From positions 1,796,366-1,860,365 of the forward strand of contig OY970372.1 of the NCBI GenBank assembly GCA_963718735.1: DNA of 64,000 nucleotides. Reading direction: 5' to 3'. Made by a program: the position numbers and the translations under genes. This stretch comes from an uncultured Solirubrobacterales bacterium (lineage in GTDB: Bacteria; Actinomycetota; Thermoleophilia; Solirubrobacterales; Solirubrobacteraceae). Below, in pieces: positions 7,542-33,658 of the stretch. Positions within the stretch are counted from its first letter, which is position 1, and each line of letters begins with the position of its first letter. The notes below the pieces were generated by a model that was not told the DNA's origin, did not search any database, and saw nothing but the letters and a program-made list of their open reading frames with translations.

Positions 7542-9217
7542 ACAACGACACAGTTGATCGAGACCAATTCGCCCGCGCTGCGGGAGTGGCGCTGTTGCTC
7601 TCAACAGCATGGTTCGTTCCCTGGCTGATCGGCCACGCCGACATGTCGAAGGCGTGGCTCAGCATCCCCTTCGTGCTCGCCACCCTGATCGTGGCCGCGG
7701 CCTCGCTCGTATCGGTTGTCAACCGCTGGCAGCGGGCGGAGCCCGAACGGACGCCCCTGCCAGCTGGGGCCGAGCCCACAGTCGCCGTGATCATCCCGAC
7801 GCTCGGTGAGCCACTCGAGCTGCTGGAGGCGACTGTGCGCTCGGTATTCGATCAAGACTGGCCGCTCGAGCGCCTGTGGGTGCTCGTCAGCGACGACGCC
7901 CGCGATGCGCGCGTGCGCGGACTGGTCAAGCGCCTCGCCCGAATATATCCAGAGGCGAGCCTGCGCTATCACAGGCCGCCAAGACCGGGGAACCCGCGTC
8001 GTAATGGCGAAGCCAAGGCCGGCAATCTCAATTCCGCGCTCACGCTGTTGCCGGCACATGTCGACTTCGTGGAGACACGCGACGCCGACGATCTCGTGGG
8101 CGACCGATGCTTCCTGCGGGAGACGGTGGGCCAGCTGTTGCACCGAGAGAAGCTTGCCTTCGTGCAAACCGAAAAGGCTGGCGAGGTCGCCCCAGGCGAC
8201 CCGTTCGACAATCAGCAGCCCCATTTCTTCCGGTGCGCGATGCGCTCGCGATATGCGGCCAACGCGGTATTTCCCTGTGGGTCGGGCGTAGTGTGGCGGC
8301 GCAGCGCGCTGCGCGAGATCGGCGACTTCCCGACCTGGAACTTGGTGGAGGATCTGCAATCGGGCATGGAGGCTCTTCGGTTGGGGTGGGATGGCTGCTA
8401 CCTACCGATCCTTGGCGCCTATGCGCAGCATTCGCCGGAGGATCTCCCGAACTTCATCAAGCAGCGCGGCACCTGGGCGCTCGACACGATCAGGCTCACC
8501 CTGTGGGCCCCCAAGCGCGGTTTGAATCTGCGCCAGCGCCTGCAGTTCTACGAGCTCGGGCTCTTCTACATGCAGGGCCCAGCCACGCTCGTGTTCCTGC
8601 TCTCCCCGATCCTCGGCTTTACGTTGCACTGGTATCCCGTGATCACGAGCACCAGTGGCTTTGTGCTGCACTTCTGGCCGTTCGCAGTGGCGCTCGAGCT
8701 CCACCTAGCGCTCGTGCACAGGCCGATGTCCTTCGAGCAGCTGTGGCGCGCGCGGCTGGTGTGGGCAGGCCTCTGCTTCGCGTATGCGCGCGCGCTCGTG
8801 CTGGCCGTGACCGGCGGTCGCAACGGCAAGCCGCGCTATGTGGTTACGCGCAAGGAGAACCGATACGCCTTGCACTGGCGAGAGATAGCGCCCCACATCG
8901 TGCTCCTCACTCTGCTGGCAGGCTCGATGGCGTGGTCGCTCGCTCATCACGACGTCTTGAGAAGCTTCGACGTCGGCTCGGCTTACTGGGCGGTCCTCTA
9001 CAGCCTGTTCCTGCTCGGCTTCGTTCGGCTCGGCTGGCATGGCGTGCGCAAGCCATCCACCGGCATCGCTCCCCCGGTCCTCTACGCCGCTAGGGGACCG
9101 CTCGGCACAGTGAGGGCGGCCACGAGCGCCCCTGTCATGGCGGGCGTCAGACATTCGACCACCAGCCCCTCCCCGATCTCGCTACCGATGTCGGCCACCT
9201 TGCCGATTCGTGAGTGA
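7538..9217 (+). CDS. Cellulose-synthase-like processive GT2 (CslA-like), no PilZ domain
   Basis: ATGA overlap with the upstream stop. VSDD, KAGNLN, DADD, VQT, FPCGSG, VEDL and KQRGTW motifs, with N- and C-terminal TM helices. Confidence 0.85.
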   Translation: MNNDTVDRDQFARAAGVALLLSTAWFVPWLIGHADMSKAWLSIPFVLATLIVAAASLVSVVNRWQRAEPERTPLPAGAEPTVAVIIPTLGEPLELLEATVRSVFDQDWPLERLWVLVSDDARDARVRGLVKRLARIYPEASLRYHRPPRPGNPRRNGEAKAGNLNSALTLLPAHVDFVETRDADDLVGDRCFLRETVGQLLHREKLAFVQTEKAGEVAPGDPFDNQQPHFFRCAMRSRYAANAVFPCGSGVVWRRSALREIGDFPTWNLVEDLQSGMEALRLGWDGCYLPILGAYAQHSPEDLPNFIKQRGTWALDTIRLTLWAPKRGLNLRQRLQFYELGLFYMQGPATLVFLLSPILGFTLHWYPVITSTSGFVLHFWPFAVALELHLALVHRPMSFEQLWRARLVWAGLCFAYARALVLAVTGGRNGKPRYVVTRKENRYALHWREIAPHIVLLTLLAGSMAWSLAHHDVLRSFDVGSAYWAVLYSLFLLGFVRLGWHGVRKPSTGIAPPVLYAARGPLGTVRAATSAPVMAGVRHSTTSPSPISLPMSATLPIRE

Positions 9218-14724: not shown

Positions 14725-15594
14725 TCACTCCCCCGAGATCAGCTTCGCTGCGCGTTTCAGGCGCCCTCCCAGCTGCTTGACGAGCCGATCGACCGTGTAG
14801 GCGCCAGCCGGCACGGTGATGTCGATGGCGAGCGGATGCTCGCTGCGCGGACGCGGCACGAGCACGGCGATCGAGCGCGCGCCGCGGACGAGCTCCTCAT
14901 CGCTTGTGACCACCCCTCGCACGCTGATACGGTCGAGCTCCGCCGCCAGCTTCTTCTTATCGACGATCGAGTTAGGGCCATGCCGTGCGAGCTCCACGCT
15001 CCCCAGCAGCTCGCGCCGCTCCGCGTCGGAGACGCTCGCCAACAGGACCTTGCCGAGCGCCGTGCAGTGGGCCGGCACGCTGGCGCCCACACCCAGGTCC
15101 AGGTCGACCGCATACTGGCCGGCGCGGTGGCCGAGAGCGCGATGCACATAGATGACGCGCAGCCCGTCGAGCACTCCCATGCTGACGGTGTGTCCAACTT
15201 CGTCGCGCAGCTCCTCCAACACCGCCCTGGCACCGACCTGCCGGCGGATCGCGCCGATCGCCGCGGCGCCGACGTCTGTGGCGTGGCGCGCAAGGCGGTA
15301 CTTGCGTCTGGAGTCCTGCTCGAGATGCCCGAGCACGACGAGCGTCGTCGCGTAGCGATGGGTCGTGGAGCGGCTGATTTTCAGGATCTCCGCGAGGTCG
15401 GCGATGCCGAGCGCCTGGACATCGCCCGAGAACGCCTCGAGGATCGCGATGCCATATTCCAACGAGCGTGACATCCTCGGATCGGGATCCGCCCTGATCC
15501 GCGCCGGGCGCGGGCGGGCGGGCACGGCGTCCGCGGGCTCGCGTCCGCCACGGCCCTTCGTAGTCTCCGGGGTCTCGTCCTCGTCCTTGTACAT
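14725..15594 (-). CDS. IclR-family transcriptional regulator
   Basis: SRSLEYGIAILEAF, HTH ISRSTTHRY, HCTALGKVLLA and IAVLV. ATG at 15594 preceded by GAGGT. Confidence 0.9.
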   Translation of the reverse strand: MYKDEDETPETTKGRGGREPADAVPARPRPARIRADPDPRMSRSLEYGIAILEAFSGDVQALGIADLAEILKISRSTTHRYATTLVVLGHLEQDSRRKYRLARHATDVGAAAIGAIRRQVGARAVLEELRDEVGHTVSMGVLDGLRVIYVHRALGHRAGQYAVDLDLGVGASVPAHCTALGKVLLASVSDAERRELLGSVELARHGPNSIVDKKKLAAELDRISVRGVVTSDEELVRGARSIAVLVPRPRSEHPLAIDITVPAGAYTVDRLVKQLGGRLKRAAKLISGE

Positions 15595-23730: not shown

Positions 23731-23989
23731 AGCCAGCGATCACGCGCCGCGCGTCTCCGCCGGCAATCGAGAGACGTCGACTGGCCAGCGCCTGCGTGCA
23801 GTCGACTGCGAAGACCGAGGCCCACTGGCCTTCAGGAGGGGCGTGAACGGACAGGGCCGCGTGTCCGGCGACGACGTCGCAGCAGTCCGTGTTTGCCGGC
23901 CCAACTCTCCGCGTCTGCCACGCTATCATTCCACGTTTGCCACATTCTTATTCCGTATCTGACCACGCCCGGTTGTAGGATCACTGGAA

Positions 23990-25216
23990 GTGATTGAACG
24001 CCGGATACGCCCTCTGATCGGCGAGTCGCTCAGCGACACGCGGGTCGTGATGGTCATGGGCGCGCGGCAGGTCGGCAAGAGCACGCTCTGCGAGGCGATC
24101 GCCGCCCAGGAACAGCGTCCCACGGTCAGCATGGACGATCAGGGCGCGCGAGCTGGCGCGGTCGCGGACCCTGCCGGCTTCCTCGCAGGCTTCGACGGCC
24201 CGGTCTTCATAGACGAGGTCCAGCGCGTCCCCGAGCTAATCCTCCCGATCAAGCAGATCGTGGATCGCGAACAGCAGCCGGGAAGGTTCCTGCTCAGCGG
24301 GTCCGCGAACATCCTGAGCTCGCGCAAGGTGCAGGAGGCACTCACCGGACGGATCGAGCTGCTGCGGCTCTCGCCGCTCGCGCAGGCCGAGATCGAGAGC
24401 GCCGAGGGCAACCTCGTCGACGCGCTGTTCGCTGCCTCCCCGCCGCGCATCCAGCGCGCCCCGATCGGCAGAGCCGCCTTCGCGGACAGGATCGCCGCAG
24501 GCGGCTACCCGGAGGCGCGCGATCGCACCGGCCGGCGGCGCGACCACTGGTACGCCAACTACCTGACGACGACCTTCGAGCGAGACTTGCAGGCGATCGC
24601 CGACCTGCACAAGGAGCACGAAATGCTGCGGCTGCTCTCGCTGCTGGCGACACGCTCAGGCAACCTGTTGCGCTACGCCAACGTTGCCGACGCGCTCGAC
24701 CTGGACGGGAAGACCGTCAAGAGCTACATAGGGCTGCTGGAAGCCATCTTTCTCGTGCGTCGGATTCCCGCGTGGCGGCCAGGGTTCCTGCAGCGTGTGC
24801 TTCAGGCCCCGAAGGTCTATGTCACCGACAGCGGCCTGCTGGCGCACCTGCTGGGCGCGGACGAGCGCAGGATCGCCGAGGACGACCGTGTCACCGGCAT
24901 CGCGCTGGAGACGTTCGCCGCGATGGAGATTCTCAAGCTCGTCAGCTGGAGTGAGGTAGAGCCGCGGGTCTATCACTTCCGTGATCGCCGCGGCACGGAG
25001 GTAGACCTCGTGCTGGAGGACCGCGCAGGACGGATCGTGGCGATCGAGATCAAGGCGAAGGTGTCGCTCTCAGGCGATGACACCAAGGGTCTCGTCAAGC
25101 TCAGGGATGCGCTCGCCGACCAATTCCTCGCCGGCGTGGTCCTGCACGCGGGCGAGCAGACACTGCCACTCGGCGACCGCCTGTGGGCCATACCCGTCAG
25201 CGGGCTATGGGCTTGA
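23990..25216 (+). CDS. AAA_14 ATPase with C-terminal DUF4143 (PD-(D/E)xK-like) domain
   Basis: GARQVGKS, FIDEVQ, LSGS, GGYPE, PKVYVTDSGL and EVDLVLE...AIEIKA. Confidence 0.9.
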   Translation: MIERRIRPLIGESLSDTRVVMVMGARQVGKSTLCEAIAAQEQRPTVSMDDQGARAGAVADPAGFLAGFDGPVFIDEVQRVPELILPIKQIVDREQQPGRFLLSGSANILSSRKVQEALTGRIELLRLSPLAQAEIESAEGNLVDALFAASPPRIQRAPIGRAAFADRIAAGGYPEARDRTGRRRDHWYANYLTTTFERDLQAIADLHKEHEMLRLLSLLATRSGNLLRYANVADALDLDGKTVKSYIGLLEAIFLVRRIPAWRPGFLQRVLQAPKVYVTDSGLLAHLLGADERRIAEDDRVTGIALETFAAMEILKLVSWSEVEPRVYHFRDRRGTEVDLVLEDRAGRIVAIEIKAKVSLSGDDTKGLVKLRDALADQFLAGVVLHAGEQTLPLGDRLWAIPVSGLWA

Positions 25217-25396
25217 GGAACCCAAGCGCGCGAAGAAACTCCACAGTGCGAGGCACTGAGCCTAGCCGGGGCAGAATGACAGCGGCTCCGGCAGTACGAC
25301 GCTGTAGCCCAATGCCGAACTTCGCCGCCCCTGCACCGTGGCAGTTGCTTCTCTCTACGGACTCTGTTGTGCCTCGGTACGATGCTGGAGCTGTAT

Positions 25397-25470
25397 GCCG
25401 ACGTAGCTCAGATGGCCAGAGCACCGCTCTCGTAAAGCGGGGGTCGCCGGTTCGACTCCGGCCGTCGGCT
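25397..25470 (+). tRNA. tRNA-Thr(CGT), intact, CCA not encoded
   Basis: Full cloverleaf: GCCGACG/CGTCGGC acceptor, GCTC/GAGC D-stem, CCGCT-CTCGTAA-AGCGG anticodon arm, GCCGG-TTCGACT-CCGGC T-arm. TACGAT -10-like hexamer at 25378-25383. Confidence 0.95.
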
Positions 25471-25622
25471 CTCGATTTTTCTGCCGCTGTGGTACCGGAC
25501 GGACCGTGTATTCTTTGTCCGTAGCTGTCCTTATCTGACCGCACACGGAAGGGGTGCCTTTCGAGCTATCAAGCCAAAAAACGGCTCTAGCTTGCGGTTT
25601 CCCTCCCCCTCCCAGCGAGCGC

Positions 25623-25660
25623 TTACGAGTGAAGTGCTCTACCAGCTGAGCTACGTCGGC
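25623..25660 (-). pseudogene. 5' half of a different tRNA-Thr(CGT), ending exactly at the anticodon loop (att-like scar)
   Basis: Minus strand reads GCCGACGTAGCTCAGCTGGTAGAGCACTTCACTCGTAA then non-tRNA sequence, with no TGAAG stem partner. TAGCAT -10-like hexamer at 25676-25671. Confidence 0.85.
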
Positions 25661-25741
25661 GCGGCCATGGATGCTAGCGGGGGGTCGGGCGGGGTCGGCG
25701 CTCTCGAGCACATGTGACGGTGGGTTAGCTGAGGCGCTTGC

Positions 25742-27643
25742 TCACAGCTCCGCAAGCGCTTGCAGCAGCGACTCGCCGTGGCGCTCGCAGAAGGTCGGGC
25801 CGATGCCCTTGACCTCGATCAGCTCTTGGAGGTTCGCGGGTCTGGCGCGCAGCACGCCTTCGAGCGCGGTGTTGGCCGCCACCGTGTAGGCGGGCTTGCC
25901 TTCGCTGCGACCCATTCGCCATGCCTTGAGCTTCTCGAAGTGGCTTTCCTCGACAGGGTCGAGCACGATCTCCTCGGCGTTCCAGGGCCGATTGGTCGTG
26001 TGCGCGCCCTCGTCGCCTGGCGTGCCGGCGATCCCGTAGCCGCCCGCTTCCGGGACGATCCGGTCGCCGGCGCCCCACGCGGAGCGCGCGCCGCGCGTCC
26101 TGCGCGCCACCGGCATCGCGCGGCGCGAGGCCTCCACCAGCTCGGAGTCCGGCTCGCATACGTCACAGCAGCGAACGTCGGGCGCACAGGGCTCGTCGTC
26201 GCCAAAATGGTCGAGGATCTGGCGACGGCGGCATGTCTGGCCGCTGGAGATGAAGCGCTCGATCGAGCGGTATGAATCCCAGCCACGATCCCTGGCGGCC
26301 TTGATCGCCTCGTAGGCCTTGCGCGGGCTGCCGGCGCCGGTGAGGCGGGCCAGCAGCCCTTCGGGGCCGCCCGGCTGGAGCTGCACGGCGCCGGCTCGCT
26401 CGGCGATCGACAACAGCACGCGTTCGCGCTCGTCGAGCTCTCCGTGCCCGATCGCGGCGACCCCTTCCTCGGCGCGGACCCGTAGCCGCGCCACGTAGCG
26501 CTTCACGTCATCGACGCTCGTCTCGCGCTCCTTGATGAACCTGATCAGACGGCCCAGGTCCATCCGCGACGCGAGCAGCAGCGCCCGTCCAGGCCGGCCG
26601 TCGCGCCCGCCACGACCAGCCTCCTGGTAGTAGGCCTCGAGGCTGGTGGGCACCGCCCAATGCACGACGGTTCGGACGTCCGCCTTATCGACCCCCATCC
26701 CAAACGCGTTGGTCGCCACGACCACCTCGGCCTGCCCGCCCATGAACGCATCCTGGCTCGCGCGACGCGCCTCGGGCGCCATCCCGGCGTGGTAGCCGAC
26801 CACGCGCAGCCCTCGCTCGGCGAGCAGCTCCGCGACCTCGGCGGTCTGCTTGCGGGTGCCGCAATAGACGATCGCGGGGCGCGCATCCTCGCGCGCGAGC
26901 GCATGCAGCAACGTCGCGCGCTTGCGCGCGACGGCCCCCTTGCCCTCCAGGCCGACGACGTCGAAGGTGAGGTTGGGACGGTCGAACCCAGAGCGAACCG
27001 CCAGCCAGTCGCGCAAGCCGAGCCGAGCGGCGATCTCCTCGGCGACGCGCGGGGTGGCGGTCGCGGTCGCCGCCATCACCGCCGGGCGGGGCGGGCGGGC
27101 GGCAAGTGATTCGATCGCATCGTGCAGGCGCAGATAGTCGGGACGGAAGTCGTGGCCCCACTCGGCCACGCAGTGGGCCTCGTCCACCACGAAGAGTCCC
27201 ACCTTGCGCGTGGCGAGCGTCTCGCGGAACGCGCGCGAGGCGAAGCGCTCGGGGGCGGCCAGCACGAGTGAGGCCTCGCCGGAGGAGATCGAGCGCAGCG
27301 CCTGCGCGTTGTGCCCCTCCTCCATCCCCGAAGCGAGCATCGCCGCGCTCACCCCCGCCCGCTCCAGGCGCCTGCGCTGGTCGGCCATCAGCGCGATCAA
27401 AGGGCTGACGACCACGACCAGCTCCTCGCCCGCGAGCGCCGGCAACTGGTAGCACAGCGACTTGCCCCCGCCCGTAGGCATCACGACGAGGCTGTCGCGC
27501 CCTTCAAGCGCCGCTTGCACGGCCTCCCGCTGGCCCGGTCTGAACGCCTGCAGGCCAAAGCGCTCGAGCAGCTGCTCGGGGGTCGCGCGCGTGGGAGCCT
27601 CGCGCTCACACGTCTGGGTCTGCTGCCGATGCACCACTGGCAA
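25742..27643 (-). CDS. recQ: RecQ-family ATP-dependent DNA helicase with Zn module and HRDC
   Basis: MPTGGGKSLCYQ, VDEAH, WGHDFRP, ATNAFGMGVD, QEAGRGGR, CRR...CCDVC and a C-terminal HRDC (VKGIGP). Confidence 0.93.
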   Translation of the reverse strand: MPVVHRQQTQTCEREAPTRATPEQLLERFGLQAFRPGQREAVQAALEGRDSLVVMPTGGGKSLCYQLPALAGEELVVVVSPLIALMADQRRRLERAGVSAAMLASGMEEGHNAQALRSISSGEASLVLAAPERFASRAFRETLATRKVGLFVVDEAHCVAEWGHDFRPDYLRLHDAIESLAARPPRPAVMAATATATPRVAEEIAARLGLRDWLAVRSGFDRPNLTFDVVGLEGKGAVARKRATLLHALAREDARPAIVYCGTRKQTAEVAELLAERGLRVVGYHAGMAPEARRASQDAFMGGQAEVVVATNAFGMGVDKADVRTVVHWAVPTSLEAYYQEAGRGGRDGRPGRALLLASRMDLGRLIRFIKERETSVDDVKRYVARLRVRAEEGVAAIGHGELDERERVLLSIAERAGAVQLQPGGPEGLLARLTGAGSPRKAYEAIKAARDRGWDSYRSIERFISSGQTCRRRQILDHFGDDEPCAPDVRCCDVCEPDSELVEASRRAMPVARRTRGARSAWGAGDRIVPEAGGYGIAGTPGDEGAHTTNRPWNAEEIVLDPVEESHFEKLKAWRMGRSEGKPAYTVAANTALEGVLRARPANLQELIEVKGIGPTFCERHGESLLQALAEL

Positions 27644-27729
27644 GCTACCCCCCGCTCCGGGCGGTACTCGGCGCGTTCCGAAAAACGCACACCCCCCGCG
27701 GGGGGACCTCCTCGGAAGCTATCGCCAGC

Positions 27730-29103
27730 TCAGCGCCTGCGCCAAACCAAGCGTGCCCCCGCCGAGGGCACAAGCGTGATCGCGCGGCGGCGGTTCCACT
27801 CTCCCTTGCGCGACAGCCTCCCGCCGCGCGGAGCCACGCTCGGGGCGAGCTCGCTGAGCACGGTCTGCAGGATCAGCTTCATCTCGAGCGTCGCGAACGA
27901 AGCCCCGATGCAGCGTCTGATGCCCCCGCCGAAGGGGATCCACGAAAACGTCTCGGGCGCTTTGTCGAGGAAGCGCTCGGGCATGAACTCGGTCGGCGAC
28001 TCATACACCCGCGGGTTGCGGTTCGTGAGGTAGATCGACGGCACGACGCGCGTGCCCTTGGGCAGCAGCCGCCCACCGACGTCGAGCGGCTCCTGCAGCA
28101 CCCGCACTACCAGCGGCACCACCGGCCTCACGCGCAGGGTCTCGGAGATCACGGCCTGCATGTAAGCGTCGCCCTCCTCAGCGTCGATCTCGGCGACGAG
28201 GCGCGCGAGCTTGCCGGGGTGGCGCGCGAGCCGCTCCATCGCCCACGCCACCGCCGTCGCGGTGGTCTCATGTCCTGCCAGCAGCAACGTCACGAGCTCG
28301 TCGCGCAGCTCCTGATCTGTCATCGCCTGCCCGTCCTCGTCGCGCGCGAGCAACAGCAGCGAGAGGATGTCGGCGCGCTCGGCCAGGTCCTCCTGCGCGC
28401 GGCGGCGGGCGATCTCGGCATAGGTCACCTCGTCGAGGTGGTCGAGCGCGCGGCCGATCGCCCCGGTGGGACGCGCTTCGACGGGGCGGCGCAGCGCGCC
28501 CAGCAGCAGCGCCGGCGTCTGACCAGGCGTGAGCAGCCCCCCGATCGCCTCGCGCAGCGCACCCATCCGCTCAGCCTCCACGCCGAACACGGCGCGCAGG
28601 ATCACCTCGAGCGTGATCGCGCGCGTGCGCACGCTCAGCTTCATCGGCTCGCCGAGAGGCCACTCGGCCATGCTCCGACGCGTGGCCTGCACGATCACGT
28701 CCTCGTACTCGCGCATCCGCTCCCCATGAAACGGCGGAAGCAGGAGCTTGCGCTGACGCATGTGCTCCGGGCCGGTGAGCGTGATCACCGAGCTCGGCCC
28801 CATCACCGGGGCGATCGGCGAGGCGCCCGCCGCCGAGGGGGCCACGTCGGGCGGCGCTGTGAACACGGCCTTGACCGCGTCCGGATCGCTCACCAGCACG
28901 AGTTTGCGCCCGCTGGGCCAGAACGTGAGCGTGAACGGGTCGCCGTAGCGGCGCGCGCACCGATCCATCACCCAGGTCGGCGCGAACGCCCACACGATCG
29001 TTTGCAAGAGCGGGTGGACGCGCGGCCCACGCGGGAGCGCCCCGGCCGGAGGCTCTGCGAGCGCAGCGGGTCTTACAAGCGGCTGCGCGACGGCGGTGGC
29101 CAC
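27730..29103 (-). CDS. Cytochrome P450
   Basis: AGHETTA I-helix, ETLR, PERF and FGGGIRRCIG heme motif. Confidence 0.95.
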   Translation of the reverse strand: MATAVAQPLVRPAALAEPPAGALPRGPRVHPLLQTIVWAFAPTWVMDRCARRYGDPFTLTFWPSGRKLVLVSDPDAVKAVFTAPPDVAPSAAGASPIAPVMGPSSVITLTGPEHMRQRKLLLPPFHGERMREYEDVIVQATRRSMAEWPLGEPMKLSVRTRAITLEVILRAVFGVEAERMGALREAIGGLLTPGQTPALLLGALRRPVEARPTGAIGRALDHLDEVTYAEIARRRAQEDLAERADILSLLLLARDEDGQAMTDQELRDELVTLLLAGHETTATAVAWAMERLARHPGKLARLVAEIDAEEGDAYMQAVISETLRVRPVVPLVVRVLQEPLDVGGRLLPKGTRVVPSIYLTNRNPRVYESPTEFMPERFLDKAPETFSWIPFGGGIRRCIGASFATLEMKLILQTVLSELAPSVAPRGGRLSRKGEWNRRRAITLVPSAGARLVWRRR

Positions 29104-29792
29104 CCGATAAGCCTATCGGGCTGCGGCTCGCTCTCGGCGATCGCGGCCAGAACGCGCTCGTGGGCGCGCTCGACCTGCTCGCTTGAGAGCGTCCGATCGT
29201 GGCGCTTCAAATAGGCCAGCAGCATCCGTGCCGGGAGCACGCGCACGCCGCGGCGACGGGCGAGCGGCTTGTCGACCCACGCACGGCTGAACACCACGAG
29301 CGGCTCGGCGCGCTCGCCCGTTATCCGTTCGAGCGTCTCGCGCTGCTCCTGGGCCTGGCGCAGCACGGCTCCGTGGATGGTGCGCACGCGCACGGGATCC
29401 TGCCGGCTCTTCGTCTCGACGGTGAACACTCCCGCGCTCCCGAGCACGATGTGATCGACGTTGCCGTGGCCGAAGCTGGCGTCGTGGATGACACGCCAGC
29501 CTCCGCGCGAGAGCTCGTCGAGCAGCCCCCCGACGTGCTCCTCGCCGGCGGCGCCCCGATCGTGGCGGTCGACGAGCGGAAGCACGTAGCGCGAGACGGC
29601 GAACATCGTCACGAGCAGGGCAAGCTCGGCGCCGATGAACAGCGGGCTGTGCAAGCCGAAGGCGCGACCCAGCACGGTCGTGAGCACGGCCAGCACGCCG
29701 AGCGCCGCGAGCGTGCGCAGCCGCAAGCGCAGGAACGTCGCGCGCGCGTGCTGCCCCGGCATGCGGGCGGCGGGATCGCTGCGTTTGGGCAT
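29073..29792 (-). CDS. NERD (nuclease-related) domain membrane protein
   Basis: Two TM helices, then GAAGEE, WRVIHD, NVDHIV and FTVETKS. Start uncertain. Confidence 0.8.
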   Translation of the reverse strand: MPKRSDPAARMPGQHARATFLRLRLRTLAALGVLAVLTTVLGRAFGLHSPLFIGAELALLVTMFAVSRYVLPLVDRHDRGAAGEEHVGGLLDELSRGGWRVIHDASFGHGNVDHIVLGSAGVFTVETKSRQDPVRVRTIHGAVLRQAQEQRETLERITGERAEPLVVFSRAWVDKPLARRRGVRVLPARMLLAYLKRHDRTLSSEQVERAHERVLAAIAESEPQPDRLIGWPPPSRSRL

Positions 29793-30054
29793 GCGCACCG
29801 GGTGGCCGCAAACGGTCGGCATATACCCAGGCATCGGCCGCGCCCAGGACGCTTCTTTAGCTTTGACCCGCTTCCCCGCAGGGGGCGACTCGAGCCTTAC
29901 CCCTCGGGTCCAGCGCTGGCCGACTGTTCGAGCTGGATGCGCCTTCTGCATGAGACTTCCGAGAAAAGCGTGGAACGTGCGACCATCCTTCTAAAGCCGG
30001 CCGCGAGCCGGGTCGAAGGCATGAGCAGGCCGCCACTTACAACGGCCTTTTGTC

Positions 30055-30504
30055 ATGTCCGAATCATTTGACCACACAGACGCCCACGTGCTTCCATCAG
30101 ACATGCGGCTGCTGCTGCGCGCCGACGCCGAGCAGTGCTGGCTGCACCGCAAGGTGCTCCCGGTCTTGCGAGAGGTGGAGACGCCCGAGGAGCTTCCCGA
30201 GGAGGAGGTCGGCGCCGCGCTCGCCTACCTAGAGGCGATGTGGAGCGAGGCGACGGCGCGCGCGCGCGCGACCGACGCCGCCCACCTAACGCTGTGCTCG
30301 CACGACCGAGAGCACGAGACTCTGGCTGGCCCTGCGAGCCGCTATCACACCGCGGTGCGCGTGCTGCGCGAGATCGTCGCCGAGCGCGTCGCGCCATTCG
30401 TGGAGCCGGGGCTCGACTTCGAGAGGCAGGGGCCCAACGCGAGCGAGGGCGGCCTGCGCGTCAAGGACACGCGCTCGGACGGCTGCGCCCCGCGCGCTGC
30501 TTAG
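30055..30504 (+). CDS. Hypothetical protein
   Basis: 149-aa ORF with GC3-biased codons and helical composition. Confidence 0.55.
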   Translation: MSESFDHTDAHVLPSDMRLLLRADAEQCWLHRKVLPVLREVETPEELPEEEVGAALAYLEAMWSEATARARATDAAHLTLCSHDREHETLAGPASRYHTAVRVLREIVAERVAPFVEPGLDFERQGPNASEGGLRVKDTRSDGCAPRAA

Positions 30505-30542
30505 CGCGCCGTTACCTTCGCACAGCCTACTCCGCGCAGGAA

Positions 30543-30742
30543 CGGCCATCTCACGGTAGTACGCGGCCATCTCAGGGCGTGCAGCTATCGCACGTTGCGA
30601 ACAGGCCTCGCCACGACCGGCCTGCGCACACCTGTGACGAGCGGCGGACAGACAGACGCTGCAGCCACAGCCGTGCGACACGCAGGGAGGGCGCACGGCT
30701 CAGACACGCAGGGACGGCGCACGGACACGCAGGGACGGCGCA
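30543..30742. repeat. Two 21-bp-period repeat sets: CGGCCATCTCA x2 and GACACGCAGGGA(C/G)GGCGCA x3
   Basis: Copies at 30543 and 30564, and at about 30677, 30703 and 30724, in the intergenic region upstream of the PHP gene. Confidence 0.75.
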
Positions 30743-30809
30743 GACATCGCGTCGCGGTCACACGCGCGCGCACACGAGTGGCGCGCTCGGATCGCGTAGG
30801 CTTCGCCGC

Positions 30810-31727
30810 GTGTCCGAGTCGCCCGCCGCGGGAGCGCCCCGCTTTGACCTGCAGTCGCACTCGACGCGCTCCGACGGAGCGCTCGAGCCAGCGGAGGTTG
30901 TGGCAGCCGCCGCCAAGGCGGGCGTGGAGCTGCTGGCGCTCACCGACCACGACACGCTCGCGGGGGTGCCAGAGGCGCTGGAGGCGAGCACAGTGCATGG
31001 CATCGCCGTGGTTCCCGCAATCGAGATCTCCGCGATCGACGACGGCGGCGAGCACGGCACGGCCCGCGAACTGCACATACTCGGCTACCTCGTGGACCAC
31101 GCCGATCCGGCCTTCACGGCCACGCTCGACGGCTTCCTCGCCGACCGTGAGCAGCGCACCCTGCGGATGGCCGGCAATCTCCGCGAGCTCGGGATCGAGC
31201 TCGACGAAGCGGCGATAGCCGCCCGCGTGAGCGCCGGCGAGCCGATCGGCCGCCCGCACCTCGCCGAGGCCGCGCTCGCCCATCCAGCCAACGCAGAGCG
31301 GTTTCGCGAGGAGCGGATCGACGACGTCGGCTCGTTCATAAGGGCCTATCTGATCGAGGGCCACTCCGCCTTCTCGCTACGCGTGACGCCGACCGTCGCC
31401 GAGGCGATCGAGGCGATCCACGGCGCCGGCGGCGTGGCGATCTGGGCGCACCCCTTCTGGGACGTGTCAGACCCTGCGGAGGCAATCGCGACGGTCGACC
31501 GCTTCGCGGCGCTCGGCATCGACGGCGTCGAGGCGTTCTACGTGACCCACACGCGCGAGCAGACCGAGCTGCTCCACACGCGCTGCCTCGAGCTCGACAT
31601 GCTGAGCACGGGCTCGGCCGACTTCCACGGCCCCGAGAACCGCCTGTTCTCACGCTTCAGGGCATTCGAGACTCACGGCTTGCAGCCCAATCTCGGGCCA
31701 ATCGCCACGCTCGCCCAAACTCGATAG
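30810..31727 (+). CDS. PHP-domain metallophosphoesterase (YciV/TrpH-like)
   Basis: DLQSHS...SDG, TDHD, HILGY, GRPH, AHP and GSADFHG. GTG start at 30810. Confidence 0.88.
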   Translation: MSESPAAGAPRFDLQSHSTRSDGALEPAEVVAAAAKAGVELLALTDHDTLAGVPEALEASTVHGIAVVPAIEISAIDDGGEHGTARELHILGYLVDHADPAFTATLDGFLADREQRTLRMAGNLRELGIELDEAAIAARVSAGEPIGRPHLAEAALAHPANAERFREERIDDVGSFIRAYLIEGHSAFSLRVTPTVAEAIEAIHGAGGVAIWAHPFWDVSDPAEAIATVDRFAALGIDGVEAFYVTHTREQTELLHTRCLELDMLSTGSADFHGPENRLFSRFRAFETHGLQPNLGPIATLAQTR

Positions 31728-31818
31728 GAGTCCTCGCGCCGCAGGCGGCGCTGCACCGGGAAGCGGGCGCAGGACGGAGGCACGCCCGCCGGACCCGAAG
31801 GGTCCCATCCCAAAAAAG

Positions 31819-32997
31819 TCAATCTGCGGACGAGCCGAGCAGAGCCGCCAGCCTGTACGCGAGCGCTTCGAAGACCAGCTCCTCCGAGACGTTCAACGGC
31901 AGGCGCAGCCGCGCGTCGCGGGCGAGCTCGACGCCGTGCAGCAACGCGCCCGGCTCGCGGCCCTGCGCACCGGCTGCGAGCTCAGCCGAACGGTCGCTCG
32001 CAAACGCAAGCTCGGGGGCGCCGGCGGCTACGCACCAAATGTCGCGCAGCCACAGCTCCACCAAGCTCAGACCGAGGTCGAGCATTGCGGTGCGCGCGCG
32101 GCGCTCCGCGCGGCGCACGACGTCGACCCCTTCGCGCTCGTACTTGCGCCGCTCCTTGCCCGGCAGCAGCTCCGCCTGCTCGCGCAGGCGCTCGCTCGCC
32201 GCGGCGCCCGCCTCCGCGCCGGCGACCTTTGCCATCTCGAGCAAGCTCGTCCAGCGCCGCTCGTGCACATGCGCGCCGAGCGCCGAGCTCACGAACCGCT
32301 CGGCCCACTCGCGCAGAGCGACGCCCCGCTCTCCGGCAAGCAGCCTCGCTAGTCGCGCGTCGCCGGCCGCCAGGCGCGCGCACGCGCCGGCCCGGCTCTC
32401 GTCGATCGCCTCGCCGTCCTCGCCGTCGATCAGGCGCCTCTGCACGAGCTCGCTCGAGAGCGGGTCGAAGCGCACCCCTTGGCAGCGCGAGGCGATCGTG
32501 GGGAGCACGTCCTCGCGGTGTTCGGCGAGCAGGATCAGGTGGGCGAACGACGGGGGCTCCTCGAGCGTCTTGAGCAGGCGGTTGGCGGCCTGGTCGTTCA
32601 TAGTGCCGGCCGCTTCGATCACGAACACCCTGCGACTCGACTCGAAGGGTGTGCGCGTGACCGCCGCCACGACCGGCTCGTCGATGTCGCTCACGAGCAC
32701 TTCGCTAGCCCCGCTGGGAGTCACCCAGGTCAGGTCGGGATGCGCATCGCGCGCCACGCGCTCGGCCACGGTGTCGGGTTGGCGCGCCCCGTCTGCGAGC
32801 AGCGCCGCCGCGAACGAGCGGGCTACCGTGCGCTTGCCGGCGCCTTCGGGGCCGTAGAACAGGTATGCGTGCGATGGAGCTCCGCCGGGCGCCAGCGCCG
32901 GCAGCAGCACCGCGCGTGCGTGCGGGTGCGGCTCGATGCCCGGCAAGATCGCCTCCGGGGCGTCCAAGGGAGTTACGCCGGCAGACACTCCGGTCAT
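31819..32997 (-). CDS. holB: DNA polymerase III subunit delta-prime
   Basis: HAYLFYGPEGAGKR, HPD, AANRLLKTLEEPP and LPTIASRCQ. Confidence 0.85.
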   Translation of the reverse strand: MTGVSAGVTPLDAPEAILPGIEPHPHARAVLLPALAPGGAPSHAYLFYGPEGAGKRTVARSFAAALLADGARQPDTVAERVARDAHPDLTWVTPSGASEVLVSDIDEPVVAAVTRTPFESSRRVFVIEAAGTMNDQAANRLLKTLEEPPSFAHLILLAEHREDVLPTIASRCQGVRFDPLSSELVQRRLIDGEDGEAIDESRAGACARLAAGDARLARLLAGERGVALREWAERFVSSALGAHVHERRWTSLLEMAKVAGAEAGAAASERLREQAELLPGKERRKYEREGVDVVRRAERRARTAMLDLGLSLVELWLRDIWCVAAGAPELAFASDRSAELAAGAQGREPGALLHGVELARDARLRLPLNVSEELVFEALAYRLAALLGSSAD

Positions 32998-33022
32998 CCT
33001 AGATGGGCGCTACCGTGCGCTC

Positions 33023-33658
33023 GTGCCGCGCGGCAGGCTCATCACGATCGAGGGCCTGGACGGCGCCGGCAAGTCGACGCTCGCCGCCGCGCTCGCCCAG
33101 AGCCTGAGGGACCGCGGCGTGCGCGTCGAGCTGCTGCACGAGCCGGGCGGGGTGGCCCTCTCCGAGCGGATCGCCAAGCTCGTCAAGGACCCCTCCTCGG
33201 CGATCGGAGGGCGCGCCGAGGCGCTGCTGTACGCCGCCGCGCGCGCGCAGCTCGTGCAAGAGCGCGTAGCTCCGCTGCTCGAGGAGGGCGCATGGGTGCT
33301 GCTCGACCGCTTCGTGGACTCCTCGCTCGCCTACCAGGGCGCGGGCCGCGGGCTCGGGGTCGAGCAGGTGCGCGCCGTCAATGCGCTCGCGACCGGCGAG
33401 TTGACGGCAGACCGCACGCTGCTGCTGCGCGTGGCGCCCGCGATCGGACGTGCCCGCCTGCGCGCGCGGGGCGCCGCCCCCGACCGTCTCGAGCTCGAGG
33501 GGGAGCCCTTCTTCCAGACGGTCGCAGCCGCCTACGAGCGGCTCGCACTCGCCGAGCCGGGCAGGATCAGACCTATCGACGCCCAGCAATCGCCCGCGCG
33601 TGTGTTGGAGCTGGCGCTCGCCGAGATCGAGGATCTGCTCACCTCGCGCACACGATGA
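33023..33658 (+). CDS. tmk: Thymidylate kinase
   Basis: ITIEGLDGAGKST, HEPGG, LLYAAAR, LDRFVDSSLAYQG and IDA. Confidence 0.93.
   Translation: MPRGRLITIEGLDGAGKSTLAAALAQSLRDRGVRVELLHEPGGVALSERIAKLVKDPSSAIGGRAEALLYAAARAQLVQERVAPLLEEGAWVLLDRFVDSSLAYQGAGRGLGVEQVRAVNALATGELTADRTLLLRVAPAIGRARLRARGAAPDRLELEGEPFFQTVAAAYERLALAEPGRIRPIDAQQSPARVLELALAEIEDLLTSRTR

Follow-up and report, generated by a model that had tools for sequence, protein, structure and literature searches.

The locus analysed here, which lies within a stretch of 64,000 nucleotides of DNA from an uncultured Solirubrobacterales bacterium (the window), is with high probability the attL end that remains of a small integrative element, which cut the single tRNA-Thr(CGU) gene of its host and brought its own copy of this tRNA. 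We reconstruct this event from relatives; the parts that can be read directly are the anatomy of the locus, its ancestral state, the matching tRNA halves and the recombinase fold in relatives. The reconstruction includes the following steps: (i) a tyrosine recombinase, the presumed catalyst, would have exchanged strands within the 7-nt loop CTCGTAA of the single host tRNA-Thr(CGU) gene downstream of recQ; (ii) the host 5' half and its promoter would have remained beside recQ, while the host 3' half would have been displaced to the far end of the element; (iii) the element would compensate with a complete tRNA-Thr(CGU) gene of its own, which is equipped with a separate promoter, points towards the crossover from a distance of ~150 bp, and is presumably both expressed and needed; (iv) the replacement tRNA retains the loop and would therefore itself be a landing site, in which later elements would have nested; and (v) in the genome of the window, the element would later have lost its integrase end along with the displaced 3' half, so that the foreign allele would be the only ACG decoder. 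The circular form of the element is expected to run from the tRNA through the 150-nt arm, the core and a second arm to int, and the predicted junction of the excised circle is arm-TTACGAG-GGCCCCCC arm.

Orphan half, replacement tRNA and ancestral locus

The orphan half on the minus strand (Table 1) is a 38-mer, GCCGACGTAGCTCAGCTGGTAGAGCACTTCACTCGTAA, that comprises the acceptor strand, the D arm, the 5' strand of the anticodon stem and the loop CTCGTAA, and is followed by the non-tRNA sequence GCGCTCG... It occurs once in the window, with zero copies expected even when three mismatches are allowed (100 shuffles). An initial annotation of this DNA, made from the sequence alone, described the half as ending exactly after the loop, and the comparison with intact host genes agrees: the next bases are TGAAG in the genomes G008 and G004, versus GCGCT in the window. 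The same annotation was accurate in placing a nearby intact isoacceptor with other arms (CCGCT/AGCGG versus CTTCA; D-loop AGATGGCCA versus AGCTGGTA) in convergent orientation about 150 bp away, the measured gap being 151 nt. This intact tRNA-Thr(cgt) is the only tRNA that ARAGORN calls within the window; none is called at the attL junction. The claim that each of the two tRNAs has its own -10-like hexamer held in part: the hexamers lie below the sigma-70 consensus scan, but they are conserved upstream of the corresponding tRNAs in relatives. No promoter or terminator was found around the module by consensus scan. The sequence GCTAGCATC..., upstream of the orphan half, is also found upstream of the intact host genes of G008 and G004 and of most host-type halves.

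Forty relatives were searched with the 561-nt region, and two kinds of match were obtained. In the same-genus genomes G008 and G004, which are insert-free, an intact tRNA-Thr(CGT) gene of the minus-strand type follows immediately downstream of recQ, in the same orientation; the 38 nt of the orphan form its start, after which it goes on with TGAAGGGGTCCGGGGTTCGAGTCCCCGCGTCGGCT. The recQ-P450-NERD synteny of the window (25742-33600) is shared with G008 and G004, and also with G009, G017, G019 and G020. Because the insert-free genomes hold the intact gene after recQ, the recQ > tRNA-Thr(CGT) arrangement is the ancestral locus, and the orphan is its remnant.

The plus-strand gene is the sole tRNA-Thr(CGT) gene called by ARAGORN in the 3.42-Mb genome. 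Its allele is also present in the corresponding modules of G020 and G009, and it is identical to the host-type Thr(CGT) allele at 58 of 74 positions. ACG is the commonest Thr codon in the genome (48% of Thr codons, 24.7 per 1000 codons); on the strength of this codon usage, the foreign replacement tRNA would very probably be indispensable to the host. Compared with tRNA-Thr(TGT) of the same genome (G000:C1:2986707-2986780), the replacement tRNA is identical at 62 of 74 positions, and the two have in common the anticodon stem CCGCT/AGCGG and the TACGATGC promoter motif. The replacement Thr(CGT) may have been derived from a UGU isoacceptor by an anticodon change.

Table 1. Features of the locus in the window and displaced 3' halves in relatives (slashes delimit the shared block)
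Feature	Position	Strand	Insert	Basis or sequence
Element sequence upstream of the ATPase	23821-23989			limits of homology (tblastx, blastn); alignment with G426
DUF4143 / AAA_14 ATPase, element cargo	23990-25216	+		Pfam
-10-like hexamer TACGAT upstream of the replacement tRNA	25378-25383	+		conserved in modules of G020, G009 and G017; not a consensus sigma-70 match
Element-borne replacement tRNA-Thr(CGT)	25397-25471	+		ARAGORN; Rfam tRNA, 67.2 bits
Conserved ~150-nt attachment-site arm (P' arm), from the replacement tRNA to the crossover	25472-25622			79-89% identity in G020, G019, G009 and G017, 88-98% in four further genomes
Crossover core, anticodon loop CTCGTAA	25623-25629	-		sole block common to host tRNA, attL and attR (comparison of G019, G017, G009 and L049)
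Orphan 5' half, nt 1-38 of the host tRNA-Thr(CGT) of the ancestral locus	25623-25660	-		38/38 identity to intact genes of G008 and G004
Host tRNA promoter region kept upstream of the orphan half	25661-25680	-		TAGCAT at 25676-25671
recQ, conserved host flank of the ancestral recQ > tRNA-Thr(CGT) locus	25742-27643	-		Pfam DEAD / Helicase_C / RecQ_Zn_bind / HRDC
3' half, G019			~11.5 kb	...GGGGGCCAACA / CTCTCGTAA / TGAAGGGGTCC...
3' half, G020			~5.1 kb	...CAGAT / CTCTCGTAA / TGAAGGG...
3' half, inner element of G017			5.5 kb	CTCTCGTAA / AGCGGAGG...
3' half, L025	L025 354-398	-	~7 kb	
3' half, L049	L049 ~8206-8245	-		
3' half, G426	L054 ~15500-15555	+		

Displaced 3' halves, nesting and other readings of the junction

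Using an exact junction word, GAGCGCTTACGAG-N4-GTGCTCT, we scanned one genome per species, leaving out the window's own genome. The word was found in 19 species-level genomes, all of them Solirubrobacterales or Solirubrobacteraceae MAGs, and in 17 of the 19 an intact convergent Thr(CGT) gene called by ARAGORN lies ~145 nt from the junction (151 nt in the window). The whole unit, i.e., the intact tRNA, the ~150-nt spacer, GAGCGC/TTACGAG and the inverted 5' half, is contained in G020, G019, G009 and G017. In these four same-genus species, the module of tRNA, arm, junction and half has 79-89% identity to that of the window, and the host flank beyond it is not alignable; in four further genomes, the identity of the module is 88-98%. 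Where the half is of the host type, the next gene is recQ in most copies.

A displaced 3' half, which the initial annotation had sought in the window without success, is also absent across the whole 3.42-Mb genome (regex; nhmmer with a 3'-half profile). In five relatives, a matching 3' half is found where the insert ends on the opposite side, 2-12 kb from the orphan 5' half and in direct orientation to it. The block shared by the host gene, attL and attR is CTCGTAA (7 bp), CTCTCGTAA (9 bp, in the element-type tRNA) or CTTCACTCGTAA (12 bp, in the ATPase-type element of G426). When the two halves were joined in silico, those of G019, G020 and the inner element of G017 each yielded a tRNA-Thr(cgt) call (ARAGORN). 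At the attR of L049, ARAGORN makes one tRNA call, with an acceptor stem that is mismatched when read by eye. Neither junction is a credible tRNA, because the attachment site of the element shares only the loop (7-12 bp) with the gene.

The host-type 5' halves (L024-L042) are all identical over the 19 positions left free by the search pattern, whereas several displaced 3' halves have indels or loop changes, e.g., CCGGAA instead of CTCGTAA in L025. This difference could result from ascertainment bias, recent insertion, gene conversion or constraint.

Three genomes, G017, G009 and G426, have an orphan 5' half of the element type whose neighbour is not recQ but the DUF4143 ATPase, and the matching element-type 3' half, together with the first bases of its own spacer, is located at the far end of the inner element. 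Since the element-type halves sit at the two ends of the inner element, a second element has entered the replacement tRNA of the first one in these genomes, bringing a third allele. Both layers can be seen in G426, in which the host 3' half is still present past the ATPase.

The initial annotation itself named as fatal to its proposal the case in which the plus-strand tRNA is ancestral and the minus-strand half is just an att remnant that arose by duplication; the comparison with relatives gave the reverse. We consider this reading very improbable, as well as its variant in which the half is an inverted duplicate of the plus-strand tRNA that has decayed. The first 15 nt of both tRNAs are identical, and in G009 and G017 the half is indeed identical to the corresponding part of the intact tRNA type beside it; however, nesting accounts for the element-type halves of these two genomes and of G426, with matching 3' halves at the other end of the inner element. 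In the window, by contrast, the half is the host allele of the insert-free relatives and not that of the neighbouring gene. Furthermore, those relatives have the intact gene exactly here after recQ, the plus-strand gene is always accompanied by foreign DNA, and site-specific integration yields direct, not inverted, repeats. Conversely, the proposal that the host gene was cut without repair, with the copy of the element replacing the ACG decoder, gains support from the ancestral locus and from the displaced 3' halves that lie in relatives beside a tyrosine-recombinase gene.

It is extremely unlikely that the locus is an invertible switch, in which recombination between the inverted 5' halves flips the 3' half and the spacer, with either promoter and 5' half completing the tRNA. 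The A-B-spacer-A' architecture formally permits such flipping, and G009 has a perfect 39-bp inverted repeat; however, the flipped form of the window would pair CTTCA with AGCGG, a non-functional stem, and the GCGCTCG... that follows the loop is conserved element DNA with no tRNA mirror. The opposite orientation was not seen among the junction-bearing loci recovered, and the location of the 3' halves at distant ends fits integration. An assembly artefact, or a split or intron-containing tRNA with its 3' half elsewhere, is scarcely credible: the genome is a metagenome assembly and the 3' half had escaped the initial annotation, but the junction recurs in independent assemblies of 19 species, no 3' half is found anywhere in the genome, and an intact isoacceptor is adjacent. 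A group I intron or a split tRNA was rejected for the lack of Rfam support and of a 3' half in the genome.

Recombinase, cargo and present state of the element

In relatives, a ~510-aa ORF adjoins the 3'-half junction (attR) and reads into the element. This ORF is intact in L025 (559-2103, P0001), G009 (L017 10163-11695, P0002) and L049, and damaged elsewhere: an IS splits it in G019, a frameshift interrupts it in G426, and in G017 only a remnant of 40 codons is left. The protein has no Pfam match at E <= 0.01 (PF00589 included), no NCBIfam match and no PDB sequence match, even as a profile; no precomputed Pfam domain is present in the 120 homolog clusters listed of the 406 found. It matches the PHROG family phrog_1, 'integrase' (E 5.6e-13, residues 20-453). 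Its AlphaFold model (pLDDT 64) has a lambda-Int-like layout that consists of a beta-sheet N-domain, a helical core-binding domain and a catalytic domain, and the best PDB matches of this pLDDT 64 model in Foldseek are Tn1549 Int (E 1.8e-4, probability 1.0) and XerH (0.99-1.0), followed by topoisomerase IB. The residues R288, K321, R420, H450 and Y451 are invariant in 21 homologs, and Y417 is found at the expected position of the first His, the R-K-H-R-H/W-Y roles having been assigned by eye. The PHROG match, the modelled fold and the invariant residues point to a divergent tyrosine recombinase.

Just upstream of the element tRNA, L025 carries an excisionase-family gene (TIGR01764) and a PIN_3 gene. 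The second arm is conserved, as represented by GCACCCCACAA, ACAGGGAAAA and GGGGGGCCA. The ATPase-type element of G020, which is the nearest to the cargo of the window, has a different integrase pseudogene (~25% identical). The cargo of the inserts includes int, xis, IS elements, PIN, a DUF4062-TPR protein, GmrSD and the DUF4143 ATPase, and no phage genes (capsid, tail, terminase, lysis) or conjugation genes were found in the inserts scanned. On the JGI contig L050, the integrase P0112, a more distant family member (60% identical), is located between an AbiE pair and McrBC genes, and neither a tRNA nor any Thr fragment occurs within 10 kb of it; the recombinase family therefore has other targets, too.

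The ~150-nt arm likely carries integrase arm-type sites, to judge from its TTTGTCC / CTGTCC repeats. The 151-nt spacer shows no significant RNA fold (z -0.31) and has no match to an Rfam intron or other RNA family; used alone against 400 evenly drawn genomes of the order, it matched only the window's own genome.

In the window, homology to related elements is confined to ~23821-25622, i.e., to the ATPase, the tRNA and the arm, a stub of ~1.8 kb. In relatives, the sequence that matches the segment upstream of the ATPase leads on to an X arm and a displaced 3' half, whereas here the homology fades and no 3' half follows; in G426, rc(3' half)-TTACGAG is located ~110 nt past the point of fading. 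The genes to the left of ~23821 (an amidohydrolase/CDO pair) are located elsewhere in relatives. A tyrosine-recombinase (Phage_integrase) domain is absent from the window, the nearest one being ~62 kb upstream of it. The nearest relatives by module identity, G425 (98%) and G424 (96%), were examined over 17 kb on the element side, where they, too, have neither a 3' half nor an integrase. Deletion or rearrangement, presumably at a later stage, has thus removed both the integrase end and the 3' half from the genome of the window; therefore, excision cannot restore the host gene, and the swap is fixed. The expectation of the initial annotation that the island would be hard to lose thus stands in one respect, since the host has no other Thr(CGT) copy, but not in the other: the island is only the ~1.8-kb stub, and it lacks an integrase.

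A ~2-kb unit that contains nothing but the att arms, the tRNA and the DUF4143 ATPase, and has no integrase, recurs between the two tRNA halves (L019 7753-9876 in G017; L054 13966-15555 in G426; 23821-25622 in the window). The ATPase has 86-90% amino acid identity and is linked to the replacement tRNA in G020, G009, G017, G426, L040 and L042, whereas the RecQ of these genomes is only 50-75% identical. This difference suggests that the ATPase-tRNA unit spread horizontally, perhaps mobilised in trans.

A second locus of the same genome, that of tRNA-Thr(GGT) (G000:C1:1349746-1350334, minus strand; L043), lies ~446 kb upstream of the window and looks overwritten, too. Its parts are, in order, a promoter with no more than 12 nt of a tRNA, the first ones (1350334), an intact Thr(GGT) gene (1350007-1349934), a spacer with TTTGTCC/GTTGTCC/CTTGTCC repeats like those of the Thr(CGT) arm, and an orphan 3' half that starts from the loop ATGGTAA (1349790-1349746); the tRNA and the orphan are co-oriented. 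The module is also present in G014 (85%) and G009 (70%). Two homologs of the Pfam-invisible recombinase are found outside the window at G000:C1:1355074-1356371 and 1363175-1364905; one of them is broken, and the other is full-length and has 69% identity to P0001. This full-length homolog is preceded by an attR-like junction, TTTTGCAGGGAAAAC.../ATGGTAA/3' half ending GGTGGGCT, and a second copy of the segment from the T arm to the end lies 92 nt past this 3' half, which no intact tRNA in the genome matches. A search for a tRNA-Tyr att duplicate near a second integrase type at G000:1335542 found none.

Relation to known systems and significance

Williams is said to have distinguished, in Nucleic Acids Research in 2002, classes of integrative elements by their sublocation within tRNA genes, one class reportedly crossing over in the anticodon loop. 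In classical tRNA-targeting elements (P4-type islands, pSAM2-type elements of actinomycetes), attP carries the 3' part of the tRNA, so that the gene is rebuilt and a direct 3' fragment is left. The element described here resembles them in having a tyrosine integrase and a tRNA gene as attB, but nothing is rebuilt at the Thr(CGT) locus, and the orphan is a 5' half. Ordinary target-rebuilding islands also occur in this genome, which has many pairs of tRNA or tmRNA 3' fragments (tRNA-Arg 583206/585717; tRNA-Cys 3312529/3325684; 1731377/1734871; 983726/985647), some of them with Phage_integrase genes nearby (584416, 1733561). Scars of classical, tRNA-rebuilding integrations are seen at the same Thr(CGT) gene in G019 (L022 ~1490-1570), G008 (L011, downstream of the tRNA) and G009 (L017 1201-1221).

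ICEMh1 and ICEPmu1 of Pasteurellaceae use as core an 11-bp direct repeat, which is the anticodon loop of tRNA-Leu(UUG) (PMC6861422). The anticodon-loop core and the single disrupted tRNA copy that is left are shared with our case; however, the end of the ICE restores a full-length, functional tRNA at one junction, whereas here the functional copy is a separate gene of opposite orientation. Prophage Lj965 of Lactobacillus johnsonii, in the brief account cited in PMC10865867, fails to rebuild its tRNA and encodes a cognate one; as presented there, it is a Firmicutes phage, in contrast to the non-phage island in Actinomycetota studied here.

The closest parallel drawn here is tRNA-dependent lysogeny, for which genetic experiments with mycobacteriophage Fionnbharth and further phages provided the proof (Guerrero-Bustamante and Hatfull, mBio 2024, PMC10865867). 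The phages in question are Fionnbharth/K4, Cluster L, Cain/K6, Gaia/X and the Gordonia phages BrutonGaster, OneUp and Mollymur; they have a tyrosine integrase and a core of 8-17 bp in a single-copy tRNA gene that is not reconstructed, and the cognate tRNA of the phage is required for viable integration (PMC10865867). The two systems have the following in common: (i) a tyrosine integrase with attB inside a single-copy tRNA gene, which in our case is reconstructed from relatives; (ii) a short core (8-17 bp there, 7-12 bp here), with no tRNA rebuilt at either junction; (iii) an element-borne cognate tRNA with its own promoter, which here would make good the lost function; and (iv) a host of the phylum Actinomycetota. 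They differ in several respects. The islands analysed here are 2-12 kb long and without phage genes, and thus this is not a lysogeny; they target tRNA-Thr(CGU), with its anticodon loop itself as the core; their replacement tRNA is placed within an att arm, ~150 bp from the core, and not elsewhere in the genome; serial insertions are nested in the replacement tRNA; the integrase family is not recognised by Pfam; and the copy in the window is a fixed remnant without integrase or attR. By this comparison, the scheme is already known from phages, and its version in non-phage islands appears to be new.

These results would extend a break-and-replace tRNA strategy, proven only for temperate actinobacteriophages, to small non-phage islands of uncultured soil Thermoleophilia. 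They also bring to light recombinases of ~500 aa, in at least 406 clusters, that are missed by standard domain annotation, so that island finders that rely on integrases would fail to pick up such islands. A tool can be envisaged as well, in that an integrase with a 7-bp tRNA-loop core, combined with a self-contained tRNA marker, could serve integration in high-GC Actinomycetota. For the organism, the consequence would be the permanent substitution of a foreign allele for its only tRNA-Thr(CGU) gene, and this allele is itself open to further insertion. Tentatively, and with somewhat less than an even chance in our estimation, these observations may reflect a ratchet, in which elements repeatedly overwrite an essential tRNA, each insertion makes the next landing site, and decay of the integrase end fixes the foreign allele. 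In such a ratchet, the same family would also have acted at Thr(GGU) of this genome, the 2-kb ATPase-tRNA units would ride in trans, and insertion of this kind might be a regular route of tRNA turnover in the order.
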